A stretch of DNA of 64,000 nt, filler included, from Globobulimina sp. (taxonomy: Eukaryota): assembly GCA_003354225.1 (NCBI GenBank). It is 21 parts of 21 records of this genome, joined end to end, with 100 filler letters (N's around TTAATTAATTAA, not from the genome) between each part and the next. Parts side by side here need not be neighbours in the genome. Positions count along the whole stretch, not along the records: positions 15,290 to 18,246 come from PIVH01004234.1; 20 more parts are not named here. The stretch is one strand, 5' to 3'. The notes beneath the pieces are model-generated. The model ran no database searches, was not told the origin of the DNA, and saw only the letters and a list, made by a program, of their open reading frames with translations. Shown here in pieces: positions 6,534-20,713 of this stretch. The translations under genes were made by a program, and so were the position numbers. Every line of letters starts with the position of its first letter. The first letter of the stretch is position 1.

Positions 6534-7976
6534 CTAGCCTAAAAGAGCTTCAACAATCCTTTTCAGCGCAATCCAATGAGCAATGCCATCCATTCCATCA
6601 TTTGAAAGTACATCAGGCATATGATCATTCAAAATATTCATTTGTGCATTATTTAAAGCTGGATGTGGTACTGTGGCCCAAGAATGTTGATGTTCATCTG
6701 ATTCAAGCCATCTCGACTCCCTTTCATAACCAGCACCATAACTAGTGTCATTATCCCTCAGATCATTAAAATATTGTACAGATTGATCTAAACCTTCTGT
6801 TGCTCTTTCCAACATAGCAGATCTAAACTCATTACTGTTTACAATCTGTAATCCTTCCATAAATCTTTGTCTTGGTGATCTTCTTAACTGGTGGACAGGA
6901 TCACTGAGATGAGGTTTATTGTTTTGTGCATCAACCCATGTAGAGAGTTCCTGGTTAATTCTTGGTAAAAACACCTTATGCAAGCACCATAAATGAGTAT
7001 TGTTATGTCGATCTAAACCATGATTTCTCTCCATATCTCTGAATCTTCGCTTCCATTTCATTATTTTATGATTCCCTAAAGTTAGCCATAACCTTTCGAT
7101 CCTAACATTTCTTGTGCTTGGTCCAACGAAAACACATTTCAAATATTGATCACCACGTTCCCTGACCATACTTTGCCACATGCCTCTGTTTTCCCACCCT
7201 CTGTCAGTTCTCAGATGAAATGGATAACAACCAAGTCTGGAGCAAGCATTGTCAAATAGTGGTCTGACTGTTACAGAATCATTTTTGCCTGGCACCATCA
7301 AACTAATTCCCATTGACATATGACTTATCACAGACACGTCTGGTGGTATTGCTAAAACAATAGTACCTTTTTTCAGCGGTAAATGTTTACCAGATGTAAT
7401 TTCTTCATTGCAGGTTAGTCCTGCAGAATGAAAACATAACACCTTCTGTTTTCTTCTGTTTGGATACGTTGTTTTGAAAGTGTTTGACTCTTCTTCATAT
7501 TCAATGTCGCAGTTAACTTCAGCGTTAATCATAAACAATGAAGATTTACCTTTTTGTTCTTCTTCAAGGTCCATTAACCAACGAGAATCTGTATGTTTCT
7601 GTTGTTGCCCTTTATAAAATAAAAATGCCACTAAATCTTCACATGTAAATTCAACTCCACGCATTTGACGTAACTCATCATATTCATAAGATGCAAACTT
7701 GATAAATTCATTAACAACACGAGTAATGTTCTGGAGGTTGCTATGTAAACCTTTGTTTTTAACGTCACTCCAATTGCTGTGTTCAGTAACGTTAAAGACT
7801 TTCATACTTTCTTTTTCAAAAGCAGCAAATTCTTCCTCAGATAACCTTGCTTTTGCTAAAGCATGAATAACTTTGTTCTTTACCACTTTGTATGAATAAC
7901 TTTGTTCTTTGTTCTTTTGTCGATCCTGCACATTTAACTGATTTGCTTCTTGAGTCGATTGAACGTGAAGAAGCAA
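6534..7976 (-). CDS. Integrase-core (DDE) transposase fragment fused to an unrelated N-terminal region
   Basis: NDSVTV..LF...GCYPFHLRTDRGWEN...GPSTRNVRIERLW...HLWCLHKVFLPRINQEL..W matches eukaryotic IS3-like integrase cores. The motif carrying the first catalytic Asp (WHxDG) is not visible. Confidence 0.8.
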   Translation of the reverse strand: MLLHVQSTQEANQLNVQDRQKNKEQSYSYKVVKNKVIHALAKARLSEEEFAAFEKESMKVFNVTEHSNWSDVKNKGLHSNLQNITRVVNEFIKFASYEYDELRQMRGVEFTCEDLVAFLFYKGQQQKHTDSRWLMDLEEEQKGKSSLFMINAEVNCDIEYEEESNTFKTTYPNRRKQKVLCFHSAGLTCNEEITSGKHLPLKKGTIVLAIPPDVSVISHMSMGISLMVPGKNDSVTVRPLFDNACSRLGCYPFHLRTDRGWENRGMWQSMVRERGDQYLKCVFVGPSTRNVRIERLWLTLGNHKIMKWKRRFRDMERNHGLDRHNNTHLWCLHKVFLPRINQELSTWVDAQNNKPHLSDPVHQLRRSPRQRFMEGLQIVNSNEFRSAMLERATEGLDQSVQYFNDLRDNDTSYGAGYERESRWLESDEHQHSWATVPHPALNNAQMNILNDHMPDVLSNDGMDGIAHWIALKRIVEALLG

Positions 7977-8362
7977 GGATTAGACGAAGAGAATCACCGA
8001 ATCGTATGTTCGCACATAATGGAAGCCGAGAGGATAGGTTGCGATTATGTCGTTTTTTCAAAGACTATGTCAGATCTTATGGAAATGATATTGTTCGATA
8101 TTATGATGGTGAGACACAAATTTTGTCTGCACGAATAACTGAGTTTATTACTGGTAATCAATATGGATTATGTGGAACAGCTAAAGAGATTTATATTGAA
8201 ATTAAATTTCCAAACAGAGAAAATTTGCCGCACGCTCAAACGTGTTCAAGAGTTATAAAATTTTCAGAGGATTGGATGGTTGCTTCAATATTTAATGCTC
8301 GATTGGATGTTTTATTCCGTTCTGTTGCAAGATGTCAAACAACAGCTTTCACCTCTACCTGA
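7892..8362 (+). CDS. HECT E3 ubiquitin ligase C-lobe-like fragment inside the transposon
   Basis: ITEFITG...IYIEIKF...LPHAQTCSRVIKF...FNARLD resembles HECT FxTG...LPxAHTCFNxL, with the catalytic Cys retained. Confidence 0.6.
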   Translation: MNNFVLCSFVDPAHLTDLLLESIEREEARIRRRESPNRMFAHNGSREDRLRLCRFFKDYVRSYGNDIVRYYDGETQILSARITEFITGNQYGLCGTAKEIYIEIKFPNRENLPHAQTCSRVIKFSEDWMVASIFNARLDVLFRSVARCQTTAFTST

Positions 8363-15189: not shown

Positions 15190-15291
15190 NNNNNNNNNNN
15201 NNNNNNNNNNNNNNNNNNNNNNNNNNNNNNNNNTTAATTAATTAANNNNNNNNNNNNNNNNNNNNNNNNNNNNNNNNNNNNNNNNNNNNAT

Positions 15292-15483
15292 GTTAGATGT
15301 ATATATAAATTAGTTGAAGGAGAATTGGAAGAAACATTATATAGAAAATATAGTGGAATAGAATCAAAATCAATATTAGGAAAAGGAGAAGTATCTTATA
15401 TTGATGATCACATGGGAGAACATTCAATTGTGAATAATGATAATATTTATTCTTATTCCCTACATTTATATTATAAATATTAA
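15292..15483 (+). CDS. Cysteine dioxygenase type I, C-terminal part (missed by the ORF track), probably viral
   Basis: Translates as VRCIYKLVEGELEETLY...LGKGEVSYIDDHMGEHSIVN...SYSLHLYYKY*. It has the CDO Cys-x5-G-x-L-x-E strand, YIxDxxGxH metal ligand and SLHLY triad. Confidence 0.82.
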   Translation, partial: VRCIYKLVEGELEETLYRKYSGIESKSILGKGEVSYIDDHMGEHSIVNNDNIYSYSLHLYYKY

Positions 15484-15529
15484 AATTCTACATTAATAAT
15501 TTATTTATAAAAAAAGAAAAATCCAAATT

Positions 15530-15537
15530 AAAATTGA
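15530..15537 (+). promoter_or_regulatory. AAAATTGA Mimiviridae-type early promoter motif
   Basis: Exact octamer 112 nt upstream of the ATG at 15650, inside a duplicated upstream block. Confidence 0.7.
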
Positions 15538-15649
15538 TTAATATATTACTTATAATCAAAACTATTAACTTTTATCCAAACATTTAAACCTTTAAAAACC
15601 TTTTAAAACTTTAAAATAAACTTTTATTCAGTTTAACTTATAAATTATT

Positions 15650-16555
15650 ATGTCCGTAGAACAAAAGTGTAAAGATAAAGTTGAACCATTTTTTGTTCAA
15701 TATCAATGGGTTGCTGATTTAGAAAAAGATATGTTTAGAATGTTAGAAAATGACTATACAAATGGAGATAAATTAATTTTATATGATAATCAACTTAAAG
15801 TAAATCATAAAATAGTTTCATTAGAATATTATTCTTCTTTAATAAGAATTGAATATTATAATGAAAAAGATTTAAAAGAAATCCACGATTTGATATACGA
15901 ATGTTTTAATGATTGTAATATTACAGTTGAAATGATAATGAATAATGATAAATATATTGAAGTTGAAGGATTAACACCAACCGAAGAGGAAGAAGAAACC
16001 GAAGAGGAAGAAGAAGAAACAGTAGATATAAAAAAATTAAAAGTTTCAGAATTAAAAAAATTATGTAAATCAAAGGGAATTAAAGGATATTCAAAATTAA
16101 GGAAACAACAATTAATTGATTTATTAAATAAACAATGTGAGTGTGAAGTATGTTATGACTGTGATGAGGAATATTATAATGATTTCATTGCTGGTGAAAT
16201 ATGTGAAAAATGTGATGAATGGGTATGTGAAAAATGTTATAAATTAGAAGAGAACACTATGATGTATTTCTGTAATAATTGTTATGATTATTTAAAAAAC
16301 AATATTGAAAGTGATTGTGAGGAAGAAGAAATATGTGGATTATGTAATGAAGAAAAATCATTAAAAGGTTTTTGTGAAAATAGTAATTGTAAAAACCCAG
16401 TATGTAAAGATTGTGATGGTTATAATAATAAATATGATAATTTTTATTGTTGTGAGGATTGTTCAAAAGAAGAATGTTGTGATAGTGATGAAGAGAATGA
16501 ATGGGAAAAAGAAAATTGTCTGAGTGAAGATGAAGAACAATCTGAATGTATGTGA
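15650..16555 (+). CDS. Rho_N-domain, acidic Cys-rich (CxxC) protein, NCLDV-like
   Basis: KKLKVSELKKLCKSKGIKGYSKLRKQQLIDLL (Rho termination factor N-terminal domain), many CxxC pairs, intronless, very AT-rich. Confidence 0.75.
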   Translation: MSVEQKCKDKVEPFFVQYQWVADLEKDMFRMLENDYTNGDKLILYDNQLKVNHKIVSLEYYSSLIRIEYYNEKDLKEIHDLIYECFNDCNITVEMIMNNDKYIEVEGLTPTEEEEETEEEEEETVDIKKLKVSELKKLCKSKGIKGYSKLRKQQLIDLLNKQCECEVCYDCDEEYYNDFIAGEICEKCDEWVCEKCYKLEENTMMYFCNNCYDYLKNNIESDCEEEEICGLCNEEKSLKGFCENSNCKNPVCKDCDGYNNKYDNFYCCEDCSKEECCDSDEENEWEKENCLSEDEEQSECM

Positions 16556-16589
16556 AGAACTAACAAAAAAACTATGATGTATTTCTGTA

Positions 16590-16622
16590 ATTATATTTTA
16601 TTTTAAAAAAACAAAATATAAT
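16590..16622 (+). terminator. AT-rich hairpin, mimivirus-type 3'-end signal
   Basis: ATTATATTTT...AAAATATAAT perfect 10-bp stem, extendable past one mismatch, 35 nt after the stop codon. Confidence 0.5.
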
Positions 16623-16667
16623 AATGGACTTATTTACTATTTACTTATAAAAAGAAAAATCCAAATT

Positions 16668-16675
16668 AAAATTGA
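16668..16675 (+). promoter_or_regulatory. AAAATTGA Mimiviridae-type early promoter motif
   Basis: Exact octamer 112 nt upstream of the ATG at 16788. Confidence 0.7.
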
Positions 16676-16787
16676 TTTATGTATTACTTATAATTAAAAC
16701 TTATTAACTTTTATCCAAACTTTAAACCTTTAAAAACCTTTTAAAACTTTAAAATAACCTTTTATTCAGTTAAACTAATAAATTATT

Positions 16788-17768
16788 ATGTCTATTGAAG
16801 AATTACAAAAAAGAATTGAAGAATTAGAACAAGAATTAGCACCATTAAGAACATTCAAAGATTGTTGTGTCATTCAGTATTACGGAAAAGAACATTTTGA
16901 AAGTGAATTAGAAACATTAGATATTGACCGAGAATTAACTGATGAAGATTTCATTTTATTAAGTAATAAAGTAAGAAATGATGAATTTATTATACAATGT
17001 ATTGGAGAACGTCTTACTGAAATTGTTGAGGAATGGAATGAAGAAAATGAGGCAATTGAAAATCAAAGTTATTGTAGATGCGGACAACCATCTCATCCAA
17101 ATGATATATGTGGACACGGAGTTGCTGACGGAAGATGTTGTAGTTGTGAAGAATGTAGAAAACAAATGGAAAGTGATAGTGAAAGTGAAGAAGCAGAGTG
17201 TCAAAGGTGTGGTTGTGATCAAGAAAGTGAATTTTTAGATATATGCGAAGAATGTGGTGAAAATGTTTCTTGTGCCGAATGTAGAGATGAATATAATTCT
17301 GTTGAAAGAAATATAATTGACGAATGTGAAGAATGTAGTAAAAAGGTATGTCTTGAATGTAAAAAAGAAAAACACGAAGATTGTGAAGAGGAAGAGAAAT
17401 GTGAAGTTATTGATTATAATAAAGATTATGATAAAATGAAAGTTCCAGAATTAAAAAAATTATGTAAAAACGAAGGAATTAAAGGATATTCAAAATTAAA
17501 GAAACAAGAAATAATTGATTTATTAAATAAAAGATGTCAATCTTGTTTAGAAGATAAAAATGAAGAAGATTGTAAAGTATGCATTGATTGTGAGAAGAAA
17601 TATTGTGAAGAATGTATGGATTTAGATGAATATCAAGATGATTGTAATCTTAAAATTGATGGTCATATATGTGAAAAATGTGATGAATGGGTATGTGGAA
17701 AATGTTATAGATTAGAGAGTAATGCTATGATGTATTTCTGTAATGATTGTTATGATGATTTATATTAA
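16788..17768 (+). CDS. Rho_N-domain, acidic Cys-rich protein; paralogue of 15650-16555
   Basis: DKMKVPELKKLCKNEGIKGYSKLKKQEIIDLL, plus the shared ICEKCDEWVCxKCYxLExNxMMYFCNxCYD module. Confidence 0.75.
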   Translation: MSIEELQKRIEELEQELAPLRTFKDCCVIQYYGKEHFESELETLDIDRELTDEDFILLSNKVRNDEFIIQCIGERLTEIVEEWNEENEAIENQSYCRCGQPSHPNDICGHGVADGRCCSCEECRKQMESDSESEEAECQRCGCDQESEFLDICEECGENVSCAECRDEYNSVERNIIDECEECSKKVCLECKKEKHEDCEEEEKCEVIDYNKDYDKMKVPELKKLCKNEGIKGYSKLKKQEIIDLLNKRCQSCLEDKNEEDCKVCIDCEKKYCEECMDLDEYQDDCNLKIDGHICEKCDEWVCGKCYRLESNAMMYFCNDCYDDLY

Positions 17769-17800
17769 TTATATTTTATTTTTTAAAAACAAAATATAAT
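17768..17800. terminator. AT-rich hairpin between convergent virus-like genes
   Basis: Same stem as 16590-16622, lying between the stop codons at 17768 (+) and 17816 (-). Confidence 0.55.
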
Positions 17801-17815
17801 AATGGACTTATTTAC

Positions 17816-18246
17816 TTATAACTTTGCTATCTCATCACATAATGCTTTCTTCTTTAATTTTGATTTTCCTACTGATTTTGGTAATGCTTTATATACTGCT
17901 GATTTCTTTATTTTTGATACTGTATTATTCATACAATCATCTTTTACACTTCCTACTACTTTCTTTACTTTCTTTTTCTTTACTACTTTCTTTGCTTTTG
18001 ATTTCTTCTTCTTTACTACTTTCTTTGATTTCTTTTCTGGTGTTTTCTTCTTCTCTGCTAAGATTTCTGCCTTTATTAATTTTCCAATCTTTTCTACTCT
18101 GCTTGGTTTAATTGAATGTTCTAATGCTAAGTATTCTCCTGATTTTACTAATTTCTTTAATTCGTTAATTGATTTAATACCTAATCTCATGAAGTTATCA
18201 ATTATTCCTTCTGATTTTCCTATTTTGAAATTATCTTTTATAAATT
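17816..18246 (-). CDS. Lysine-rich basic protein, 5' partial, virus-like
   Basis: Open from the contig end; KKVVKKKK repeats; C-terminal KSKLKKKALCDEI resembles a Rho_N-type helix. Confidence 0.55.
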
Positions 18247-18346: not shown

Positions 18347-20713
18347 CCGCTCCCACGCTCGCATCGATGCCATAGAACAGCGCCTCCTCTTCGCCCAGGC
18401 CGCAGTCCGCCACCTCCTTCCGCCTCTCCTTGCAATTCGAGTGTGCGTGCTTCACCCATTGCGGCCGGATATTCTTGCTCTCGCGAGCCGTCTTCAACTT
18501 GATCGCCAGGTCGGCCTTCTTCTTATCGTACTTCTCGTTCATCTCAGTCTGCAGCTCTTTGAGCCGCTTCCGCAGACTCGAGTCGTGCCGCAGAAACGAG
18601 TTCAGTTTCATGGACTGCCGCATCGCGTAAATGCTGCGCAGGAAATGCGTGCTCTCCACGTCGAACATGGTGTCGCTGACTACCAACAGGACGTGGCAGA
18701 TGCAGCTCAGAAACAGCGCGTGTTTCACCATCTCGATGTCCCACGTCTCCATCGGCGCAGACGAGTGCGAGTGGAGCAGGTCGGCGTTCTCGCGGATGCA
18801 GCGCCGCCGGTGGTTGGTCAACGAAAACAAGATGCTCGGCGATAATATCGGTTGGCAGTCCAAGTAGATCACGCGTTGCCCGCTGCGGCTCGCATAGCCC
18901 TGGATGCCGTGCGTGCAATGCGTCGAAGAGATCAATTTGTTGAGCTCCGCAGTCAGGAAAATGTCCTCTCCGTCGCCCGCCAAACACGACAACAGACGCG
19001 ATTTGCCCACGCCTTGCTGCCCAATCACGCCAATCATCAAAAAATCGCTGCATTCCGGCGATAGCTGCTCCTCAATCTCGTTCAGAACATGCGGACACAT
19101 CCGGACGTCCAGAAACGGCACAGATTGGCATCGGCGTTGCCGGCTGTTGTTGTCGTAGCAGTTGACGTACCGGTTCAAAATCTCGTTTTCTAAGTCGATA
19201 TTGCTCAGACTGTCGTCGCTGAGGACGTCCTCCTCGGTGTGGCTGATATGCGCGTCCCACTTCACACTGCTGCCGTCGCGGTGCGTATTGAATTTCTGGT
19301 TGTAATGGCGATGCCGCGGGCCCATATTTGGCGAATGGATGGCAGTGTCGTCATGTTTGCGGGCCGAGGAAGCAAAGCCATGCTTGTCATGCGAGTGTGA
19401 ATGTGAATGGTGTTTATCCCATTCGTGGTTACGATGCCGTGGCGGTTCGAACTTATTCGGCCGTTTGTCCCAACGACGAAAGCCACGGTCTCTGTTATAA
19501 TCCTCTTCATCGCTCCATTTGTCACTGGCAAAGTCTTAATTGTACGTGTTTTTTGGTGGTGTGTTATATGCGAATTTGCGTGCGTTCATATATGAATATG
19601 TTAACTTGATCTGTGCCGATTATAATGTTTGTAATGATGCTTCCCTCTCCGTACGCGTCCACGCCCTCTGCCTCGGCCACGGCCACCGCCACGGCCACGT
19701 GTACGGAAACTGGCCGCTCGGTCACTGTTACTGTGACTGTTGCCTCTTCGCCACGATCGCGTGTCTTCATGCGATGTATTCGCCTCTTCAGGCATTTGGA
19801 GCACAGCGGGGGTGGCAGAGACGGCGGCAGGGACTGTAGTGGCAGCGGCGGTGTTGTTGCTCGTTGAGGCCGTACTAGCACCAATGTCAGCGATTATGTT
19901 GGCGGTTTCAGACCCAATGGCTATATGAGGCTCACTTGCATTGTTATCGGACGGTACAGTGGTGGCTGTGTCGTCTGTCCCATCTGTATAATGTGTATGT
20001 GTGTATGTGCAAGGATGGCGATGTTGTTTTTTGTTTGATAATAAAGTGGTTTGTCTGTGTATAGTGATACCATTGTTTTGTTGGGCGAGTGCTTGTAAGG
20101 CAGCTTCGCGCTCTTTGTCGAATTTCTTGCCTCTGCCAATGGATTTGTTGTAGTTTTTCTTGTGATGCTGTGGGATGGGGATGACAGCGCCGGTGCCATC
20201 TTTGCGTTTGTAATGATAGAGGCGGCCGCCGCGTTTTTGCATGCCTAATAATTGATGGCCAAGGCTGTTTTTAGGAGGAATGTAGGCAATGGAGCTGGCG
20301 GAGAGGTTGCTTGGATCAGAGATTACGTTTTGTAGCACTGCGGCGACGTTGTCGTTGGGATTGGTGAGGTTGGGGAAGCGAGACAGGGCGTTGTTGTTGG
20401 TGTTGGTGTTAATGTGGGTGTTGGTGGTTGGGTGTGCTTGGTGCGTAGGGGAATGAAGCTGTGTGTTTGTGTTGTTATTGGTGTTGATGTGATCGATATT
20501 GTTGTTGTTGGTGGTGGTGGTGTTTGGGTCATTCACTTGTTTGCGTTGTAAGATACGAAATGGTTTATTGCCATTGTCGTTTGTAATTTGACCATTGAAA
20601 TGTTGTGCGTTATTGTAATGGTCAATGCTTTTATTGTATCGACCGCGTCGATGATAGCCATTGTTGTAACCATTGGGGTTGTAGCGTCTTTTACCTCTGC
20701 CATAATTGCTCAT
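18347..20713 (-). CDS. SMG9: SMG9-like NMD factor with long low-complexity/RGG N-terminus; intron 19535-19605; 3' partial
   Basis: IGVIGQQGVGKS P-loop, HCTHGI, RVIYLDCQPILSPSIL, LFLSCICHVLLVVSD. The 71-nt GT..AG intron joins ORF 19601-20713 in frame (HRS-N-FASDK). Confidence 0.85.

Follow-up and report, generated by a model that had tools for sequence, protein, structure and literature searches.

A two-part gene-end signal and an extended early promoter on an AT-rich contig of a Globobulimina assembly point to an uncultured giant virus

INTRODUCTION

The genome assembly of the protist Globobulimina sp. (GenBank GCA_003354225.1) holds a short, very AT-rich contig, PIVH01004234.1, which raises the question of whether it belongs to the protist or to a giant virus. 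We studied it within a window of 64,000 nucleotides, i.e., the whole stretch of DNA analyzed, which consists of 21 contigs of ~2.95 kb each with N/TTAATTAATTAA spacers between them; positions count along this window, and the target contig covers 15290–18246. An original prediction, made from the sequence alone, had assigned the contig to an Imitervirales-like giant virus, as the octamer AAAATTGA precedes two of its genes and an AT-rich hairpin follows each of their stop codons. These two genes, the open reading frames (ORFs) ORF1 and ORF2, lie between ORF0 and ORF3. The AAAATTGA promoter and hairpin-forming 3′ ends are both presented as key recognition features of Mimiviridae in passages of Claverie and Abergel 2018 (PMC6163669), and in a passage of PMC5294985, 45% of mimivirus genes have AAAATTGA in the 150 nt upstream.

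The target contig is most likely DNA that was sequenced with the protist but comes from a giant virus (Nucleocytoviricota), uncultured, very AT-rich, and probably related to Mimiviridae/Imitervirales, because it has in common with known giant-virus contigs a gene-start signal and a distinctive gene-end signal. The decisive link to giant viruses is non-coding; it comprises the gene-end motif and a whole terminator-promoter spacer, to which protein modules are added. Homologous non-coding signals are common to the contig and to loci with genes for capping enzyme, TFIIB, eIF4E, and thymidine kinase. The predicted giant-virus origin is well supported, mainly by the gene-end motif, the spacer, and the protein modules; the promoter and hairpin argument first offered for it is weaker than stated, its two cases being one duplicated cassette.

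RESULTS AND DISCUSSION

Gene-end signal

The ends of ORF1 and ORF2 bear the following features:

16601..16632, + strand, gene-end motif copy 1: TTTT AAAAAAA, spacer, ATAATGGACTTA
17779..17810, + strand, gene-end motif copy 2: TTTTTT AAAAA, spacer, ATAATGGACTTA; highest summed depth in the sequencing runs
16590..16622, + strand, A/T hairpin 1: arms 16590–16604 and 16608–16622, 15 nt, 93% complementary, 3-nt loop
17768..17800, no strand, A/T hairpin 2: arms 17768–17783 and 17785–17800, 16 nt, 94% complementary, 1-nt gap

The gene-end motif consists of T4-6 A5-7, ~10 variable nt, and then AT[AT]ATGGACTTA. It was compared with loci from a family-alignment search of IMG/VR, which returned 29 loci, all matching only the SAP region of the contig's proteins, and with L060, a contig of a public metagenome-assembled genome (MAG). 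Collecting the 9-mer ATGGACTTA across the fetched loci gave 22 distinct sites, 16 of which were chosen by eye for alignment (two each from the window, L060, L001, L005, and L017, four from L004, and one each from L002 and L003). Apart from the L003 variant, these copies are gapless from the T-run/A-run to AT[AT]ATGGACTTA. The 9-mer occurs 2–4 times per locus, compared with 0.03–0.15 expected. A stricter search for the full pattern found 14 distinct sites. Measured from the stop of an ORF (≥60 aa) on the same strand, 11 of them begin 0–12 nt downstream and the other three at 45, 85, and 97 nt; this full pattern is present in 6/29 of the SAP-fetched loci (L001, L002, L004, L005, L017, and L020, the sites of L017 and L020 being identical). 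The orientation of the motif is always that of the preceding gene. The possibility that ATGGACTTA is the start of a small ORF was rejected, since the frames downstream are not conserved and one of them stops after four codons. An exact scan of IMG/VR with a 23-mer of the gene-end block gave no match, and our literature search found, among the papers listed, no description of the ATGGACTTA box and none on viruses, and no paper with both GGACTTA and Mimiviridae.

The AT-rich hairpins that had been predicted after the stops are present in the contig, with A/T arms of 15 and 16 nt. Hairpin 1 begins 34 nt past the ORF1 stop, and hairpin 2 overlaps the ORF2 stop codon, between the convergent ORF2 and ORF3. 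Their stems are all A-U and weak (−8.3 kcal/mol, z −2.65, for hairpin 1; −5.0 kcal/mol, z −1.05, for hairpin 2, which reaches −8.7 kcal/mol, z −3.42, on the minus strand). Across the 16 motif copies, 66.4% of cells pair in an extended 14-pair helix against 64.5% in shuffled sequences (106/500 shuffles as high), and RNAalifold predicted no consensus structure for them. Judged by this alignment, conservation in the motif family does not extend to the long hairpin, and what the contig shares with its relatives is a two-box sequence signal. The contig resembles Mimiviridae in having a palindrome 3′ of the stop, with one palindrome common to two convergent genes of the window, but differs in that a sequence motif, not the hairpin, is conserved after the stops. 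The hairpins of Mimivirus are said to have been described by Byrne et al. in 2009 as unique in sequence.

The pacmanviruses and the extended Asfarviridae offer a second comparison, as, in passages of PMC11788076, they too pair the early octamer with a T-rich signal located past the stop. There, AAAATTGA is reported at 44% of pacmanvirus genes and the motif WWTTTATTTTTTAWW at the 3′ end of 221 ORFs, and AAAATTGA is also used by African swine fever virus (ASFV). Gene-end copy 2 of the window contains this pacmanvirus 15-mer exactly, at 17773, which is the sole exact match. As given in those passages, the pacmanvirus motif differs in being without the second box, ATGGACTTA.

Giant-virus loci with the same signal

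The IMG/VR loci that carry the gene-end motif also carry giant-virus genes. The best SAP matches in IMG/VR (67–74% identity) lie in very AT-rich loci bearing the motif, several of them named GVMAG, and their neighboring genes encode a fused mRNA capping enzyme, TFIIB, eIF4E, thymidine kinase, a 2-cysteine adaptor, RNase III, MutS, and PolB (a PDB search with the L004 capping enzyme gave no match at E 1e-5). AAAATTGA lies within 200 nt upstream of 6/21 ORFs in L001, 7/18 in L004, and 7/14 in L005. The predicted label "Imitervirales-like" is a probable placement, based on the AAAATTGA frequency and gene content of the relatives; AAAATTGA also serves pacmanviruses and ASFV. A further link is the zinc module of ORF2, for which one of 32 IMG/VR candidates gave a match. 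This is a gene of 69 aa in L066 (4075–4284), a GVMAG locus, with AAAATTGA ~50 nt upstream and genes for Rpb11, topoisomerase IA, and a UvrD-helicase adjoining. The profile used for it (alignment A4) was built from whole proteins, without P0001, P0003, and P0044.

The 140-kb record to which L004 belongs bears on the chance that the contig comes from a small giant-virus satellite, such as a transpoviron-, virophage-, or episome-like element, that borrows the promoter and gene-end signals of a virus. Such elements do suit the contents of the contig, which has ORFan-like genes only; according to passages of PMC11788076, AAAATTGA precedes small paralogous or zinc-finger genes in transpovirons and in a 2-kb episome of a pacmanvirus, and relatives of ORF2 sit on contigs of 8679 nt (P0002/P0003) and 8744 nt (P0005). 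We nevertheless consider a satellite very unlikely, as the gene-end motif follows ordinary genes in long giant-virus contigs such as the L004 record, and the target contig lacks a terminal inverted repeat and any gene for a transpoviron-type helicase or a virophage capsid.

Shared terminator-promoter spacer

The closest DNA relative of the contig is L060, a 6.1-kb, 22%-GC contig of the MAG G001 (6.9 Mb), which is labeled Gammaproteobacteria. The gene-end block of the window is 94% identical over 48 nt to the DNA directly 3′ of the stop of the L060 SAP gene, with weaker copies in L004 and L005. The likeness extends through the entire ORF1-ORF2 spacer (gene-end motif, promoter, and leader to the ORF2 ATG), which matches the spacer behind the L060 SAP gene at 121/133 positions, with an alignment score of 122.5 against 66.0 ± 8.1 for 300 shuffles. 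In L060, AAAATTGA stands 20–48 nt ahead of 4/4 complete gene starts. The first L060 ORF has two modules in common with the metagenome protein P0004, which in turn has the N-terminal domain of ORF2 (50% identity over 86 aa, E 2e-21).

G001 as a whole has 12 copies of the gene-end motif, spread over 10 contigs, whereas the motif written backwards, as a control, is absent. These motif contigs have a GC content of 18–28%; their terminator blocks are 84–95% identical to the target over 33–57 nt, and their terminator-promoter stretches 70–75% over 100–174 nt. Among the 21 contigs of the window, only the target matches them, save for one 49-nt match. Four of the G001 contigs were read fully: AAAATTGA stands 31–105 nt before 7/8 plausible genes with complete upstream regions, the gene-end motif begins 0–18 nt past four stops, and the encoded proteins include DNA methylases and a 1381-aa helicase-methylase-SAP protein, which is related (E 8e-31) to a protein beside a PolB fragment in the IMG/VR locus L007.

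The bacterial label of G001 raises the prospect that the target contig comes from an AT-rich cell, whether another eukaryote, a nucleomorph, or a bacterium, and that its motifs are chance or cellular repeats. It is in keeping with such a source that the contig has no viral hallmark gene, that ORF0 resembles a eukaryote-type cysteine dioxygenase, that SAP/Rho_N domains occur in cells, and that the closest DNA relative was filed under a bacterium. The G001 contigs themselves, however, have giant-virus traits in their low GC, their AAAATTGA placement, and the large multidomain gene common with an IMG/VR locus, and the MAG includes VLTF3; moreover, the gene-end motif is common to loci with capping enzyme and TFIIB, and no Shine-Dalgarno-like sequence is present in the 25 nt before the ATGs of ORF1 and ORF2. 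A cellular source is thus highly improbable.

In G001, contigs C119, C216, C260, C324, C377, C639, C683, C864, C938, C1094, and C133, along with L060, include at least 10 that are AT-rich (18–28% GC) and have giant-virus-type promoter and gene-end signals, to which a VLTF3 fragment is added, and they look like mis-binned giant-virus DNA. The gene-end motif can serve as a cheap, alignment-free marker, which already flags at least 10 giant-virus-like contigs in this bacterium-labeled MAG. Three loci of Asgard-archaeon-labeled MAGs (L042, L045, and L056) have 30–32% GC, 7–9 AAAATTGA per 10 kb, and a SAP-domain gene; these, too, may be giant-virus DNA that was assigned to cellular genomes.

Promoter and leader

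The starts of ORF1 and ORF2 bear these features:

15526..15581, + strand, promoter block 1 (AATTAAAATTGATT...), containing AAAATTGA at 15530–15537
16664..16719, + strand, promoter block 2, containing AAAATTGA at 16668–16675
15586..15616, + strand, 5′ leader repeat of AAACCTTTAA with a 10-nt period, 3.2 copies

From the end of the octamer to the ATG, the distance is exactly 112 nt in both cases, as the original prediction had stated, though the two amount to one duplicated signal. Other copies of block 1 in the sequencing runs diverge before 15526 and past ~15572–15581. Like the Mimiviridae promoter, the window motif is an exact octamer on the coding strand, less than 150 nt from the ATG, with an AT-rich spacer; it differs in lying 112 nt from the ATG rather than the 20–60 nt typical of relatives. 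This unusual distance arises because the leader has ~64 nt, including the 10-nt periodic repeat, that are absent from L060. The chance of finding the octamer on the correct strand was 0.985% in 20,000 shuffles of the 166-nt spacer. On the contig, three copies were found against 0.85 expected (P(≥3) = 0.05), and across the whole window the octamer is not enriched (13 vs 18.8 expected). It precedes 2/2 contig genes with a complete upstream region, both instances being one duplicated block; the upstream region of ORF3, which is cut by the contig end, has a copy with one mismatch.

An ATAA box lies 13–19 nt 3′ of AAAATTGA in all six aligned promoters (window 15515–15652 and 16653–16790, L060, and L066), and may mark the region of transcription start. 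A scan of IMG/VR with a promoter 19-mer matched L031 and L032, in which only ~21 nt are common to the window, and this was set aside as a probable chance or generic promoter match. These two GC-richer contigs (L031 2000–2019; L032 2001–2020) hold an exact 20-mer (AATCCAAATTAAAATTGATT) of the window promoter and have ~25 nt in common with each other, and nothing more.

Duplication of the ORF1/ORF2 unit

The two promoters and the two hairpins are one signal that was duplicated, because both sit in direct repeats of tandem paralogues. ORF1 and ORF2 have the SAP domain and C-terminal zinc fingers in common and differ in their N-terminal parts. Their promoter and leader regions are identical at 134/141 bases in a gapped alignment (a 157-nt direct repeat, 86% identical ungapped), and the regions after their stops at 56/63 bases, in a second repeat that includes both hairpins. 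Reading the promoters as two independent matches was thus rejected, as both are copies of one repeat. Conservation is far higher in the regulatory DNA (95% identity) than at synonymous sites in the coding part that the two genes share (synonymous difference pS 0.22, dN/dS ~0.94).

An exact 21-nt direct repeat (16256–16276 and 16571–16591, also at 17725–17744) brackets the last 93 codons of ORF1, and the DNA 3′ of the ORF1 stop includes a relic of ORF2-type C-terminal coding sequence that is continuous into the terminator. Together, the repeat and the relic suggest an origin of the ORF1 tail within an ORF2-like gene, through an insertion or a duplication.

Regulatory blocks in the sequencing runs

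The public sequencing runs show the regulatory blocks in many settings. Run X1, possibly the source run, contains 89% of the sampled words of the contig, and small shares are present in X2 and X4, from the same sample, and in X3, a sediment metagenome of another study with ORF2 pieces 92–97% identical; X2 and X4 hold the repeated blocks only, without unique parts. In X1, the word depth is ~9–12 in most unique parts, 212 in the promoter block, 86–116 in the second promoter region, and 581 in the gene-end block, these depths being sums over all contigs matched and not copy numbers. The blocks meet several different flanks (at 17813, 6 records diverge in X1 and 14 in X3), and in five joints from X1, X2, and X3 an end block is followed by 5–26 other letters and then by a promoter block. 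High block depth with varied flanks fits a genome, with its relatives, that uses the blocks between many genes.

Recurrence of this kind is also what selfish repeats would give, and the hairpin and motif blocks might be elements similar to miniature inverted-repeat transposable elements (MITEs) or repetitive extragenic palindromes (REPs), docking on stop codons without working as terminators. Besides the high summed depth and the many flanks, the stem of hairpin 2, which includes the stop codon, agrees with docking. In the 16 copies from several genomes, on the other hand, conservation is confined to two boxes a fixed distance apart, with a variable spacer and variable flanks, which suits a recognized signal better than a recently spread repeat; the motif always runs in the direction of the preceding gene, and no inverted ends or target duplications were seen. 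We judge such repeats decidedly unlikely.

Evidence that weighs against a viral origin

Several results count against a giant-virus origin of the contig. In its four ORFs, Pfam found no match to the hallmark families (MCP, PolB, A32, VLTF3, D5, and RNA polymerase), and the other 20 contigs yielded no giant-virus hallmark gene either, their 37 scanned long ORFs being cellular or unassigned. Only one occurrence of the promoter is independent, and it lies 112 nt from the ATG, whereas the giant-virus loci that were fetched have a median distance of 41 nt. All the loci compared were fetched through homology to the genes of the target contig itself, so the comparison covers the spread of the motif within them, and the summed run depths do not amount to copy numbers. 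The SAP pattern recurs in 33 loci of prokaryote-labeled genomes at 47–68% identity; the domain discriminates poorly for that reason and was rejected as a viral marker, and Pfam searches of 38 SAP-bearing matches gave no taxonomic clue. The closest full-length relatives (P0001–P0005 and P0025) are metagenome proteins. In G001, the VLTF3 fragment (E 4e-44, on an AT-rich 502-nt contig) is tied to the motif contigs only through common AT-richness within one bin, and searches of that MAG for MCP (with two Pfam models), A32, and capping enzyme gave no match, although this does not show their absence because the bin is so fragmented.

Composition and the question of integration

The target contig stands apart from its neighbors in composition:

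15290..18246, no strand, whole contig: 2957 nt, compositional outlier among eukaryotic contigs

Its GC content is 24.2%, compared with 29.2–49.0% in the remaining 20 contigs, and its four ORFs are packed and free of internal stops, which bears out the prediction of a packed contig that is AT-richer than its neighbors. The intergenic spacers (166, 232, and 47 nt) have a GC content of 11–15%, and GC at third codon positions (GC3) is 11–12% in ORF1 and ORF2 against 25–44% in nine long AT-rich neighbor ORFs. The other contigs encode midasin, Arf, a GTF3C1-like protein, WD40, guanylate kinase, and Ofd1, and hold no paralogues of the four ORFs and no copies of the regulatory blocks.

These host-type neighbors admit a reading in which giant-virus-derived DNA is integrated in the nuclear genome of the protist as an endogenous viral element, and was not sequenced from a virion, an infection, or a meal. 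The contig does come from a eukaryote assembly, among midasin, Arf, GTF3C1, and WD40 genes, the depth of its unique parts in X1 is modest, and the dN/dS of ORF1 and ORF2 fits relaxed constraint. Against this, neither contig end has host-like sequence, the complete ORFs are all intact and the regulatory blocks well conserved, and GC3 has not shifted toward that of the host. The runs point the same way, as X2 and X4, from the same sample, hold repeated blocks only, and the ORF2 pieces of X3 come from another study. Integration is unlikely. In what follows, we keep the reading of giant-virus DNA sequenced with the protist, which may be that of a free or an ingested virus or, less probably, integrated.

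Proposed organization of the genes

The features together suggest how the genes of this virus may be built. ORF1 and ORF2 are a pair of tandem paralogues, ORF3 is a convergent lysine-rich gene, and ORF0 is the tail of a gene that resembles cysteine dioxygenase. Each paralogue is framed by the extended early promoter (AATTAAAATTGATT...) upstream and the two-part gene-end signal downstream, the latter starting on the stop codon or a few tens of bases past it. From its position, orientation, and conservation, the promoter block would start transcription, and the gene-end block would end or polyadenylate the transcripts; in this sense we infer the intact transcription signals that the original prediction proposed. 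The ORF1-ORF2 spacer is a compact, putative terminator-plus-promoter unit, which recurs beside unrelated genes in relatives. Recombination between such units may take place and would account for the mosaic likeness between the two paralogues.

More generally, and as a tentative proposal that we hold to be possible rather than probable, this viral clade may end its genes by the two-part sequence signal T4-6 A5-7, ~10 nt, AT[AT]ATGGACTTA, 0–18 nt past the stop, in place of the sequence-free hairpins of the Mimivirus type; the signal would be joined to the extended AAAATTGA promoter as a portable cassette, and cassette recombination would shuffle and duplicate ORFan genes. A working parallel exists in the promoter-early stem-loop (PeSL) cassettes of T4-type phages, which are described by Arbiol et al. 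2010 (PMC2839356) as a terminator stem-loop with an early promoter. Both are compact terminator and early promoter units that flank small ORFan genes, recur often, and have mosaic neighbors; the unit of the window recurs beside different genes in the runs and in relatives, and ORF1 and ORF2 are mosaic. The window unit differs in coming from a eukaryotic virus with another transcription system, so that the likeness is one of working and not of descent, and cassette recombination and mini-circles are described for the PeSL cassettes. The gene-end signal suggests that some mimivirus relatives end their transcripts with a recognizable sequence. If the viral origin is correct, an uncultured mimivirus-like virus is represented in the fragmented protist assembly, and cassette-bearing contigs would provide a way to find the virus-host pair in poorly studied protists.

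Genes and proteins of the contig

The four ORFs are as follows:

15292..15483, + strand, ORF0: 63-codon 3′ fragment of a cysteine-dioxygenase-like cupin gene, the 5′ part off the contig
15650..16555, + strand, ORF1: 301 aa, with a unique N-terminal part, an acidic run, SAP/Rho_N (16025–16132), and Cys-rich zinc-finger modules
16788..17768, + strand, ORF2: 326 aa, with an N-terminal domain (16788–17057), a zinc module (17055–17192), SAP/Rho_N (17424–17531), and B-box-like fingers (17532–17765)
17816..18190, − strand, ORF3: 124 aa from the ATG at 18190, lysine-rich, the frame open to 18244

[quoted passage not shown] The Rho_N match is above the cut-off of 24.9 bits in both ORF1 (34.6 bits, E 1.9e-8) and ORF2 (30.5 bits), and the SAP match is just below its cut-off of 23.9 bits (21.7 bits in ORF1 and 23.1 in ORF2). 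ORF2 also matches the Ku70 chain with a C-terminal SAP (PDB 1jjr) at E 8e-7. The two proteins thus resemble the SAP/Rho_N (HeH) proteins (PF02037, PF07498), and ORF2 differs in adding an uncharacterized N-terminal domain, the CGHG zinc module, and the B-box-like fingers. With SAP and zinc-finger domains, ORF1 and ORF2 most likely encode DNA-binding proteins. The N-terminal domain of ORF2 is family-specific, and its zinc module (CxCG..H..D.CGHG.ADG.CCxCxxC) covers residues 90–135; the MID1 B-box1 (2ffw) matches residues 249–278 weakly (E 0.0063), without a Pfam B-box match.

The full domain combination of ORF2 was seen only in metagenome proteins. Its full-length relatives are a handful of these, P0001–P0005 (24 matches in the protein search). 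Against 1.8 billion representatives, ORF2 gave 215 matches at E ≤1e-3, 14 at ≤1e-10, and 2 at ≤1e-30, most of which depend on the SAP domain. The ESM Atlas gave no usable match for ORF2, and single-protein scans of IMG/VR with ORF2, P0003, P0025, and P0044 gave no match. Among the matches listed, a metagenome scan for contigs of the relatives found only a weak 1.2-kb locus, L030.

The zinc module of ORF2 is common to about a dozen short acidic metagenome proteins, with the consensus CxCG-x3-4-H-x2-[DN]-[IL]-C-[GAS]-HG-x-[AG]-[DA]-G-x-CC-x-C-x2-C, mostly followed by an acidic tail and without a Pfam family. Proteins with this module have both AT-rich-type and ordinary amino-acid compositions.

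ORF0 matches Pfam CDO_I (PF05995) at E 3.1e-4 with 20.8 bits, under the cut-off of 23 bits, and is 77% identical to the metagenome protein P0025 (146 aa). P0025 carries PF05995 in a precomputed table and matches solved CDO1 chains at E 3.6e-9, and by sequence it resembles a eukaryote-type cysteine dioxygenase; it was not found in G001 with the queries used, nor in any fetched locus. No family or relative of ORF3 was found in Pfam, the ESM Atlas, the fetched loci, or, with the queries used, G001. Its frame stays open to the contig end, so that the 5′ part of the gene may be missing. A search of Rfam with the target contig returned nothing above noise.

Other observations in the window

Two further features lie outside the target contig. 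The contig at 18347–21303 has a GC content of 49%, one ORF with a GC3 of 75%, and three long ORFs without a Pfam match, and is a second compositional outlier, probably from yet another organism. On the minus strand at 6537–7979, a host-type contig has an open frame of 481 codons whose product contains an integrase core (rva_4, E 3.6e-23), probably a mobile element of the protist.

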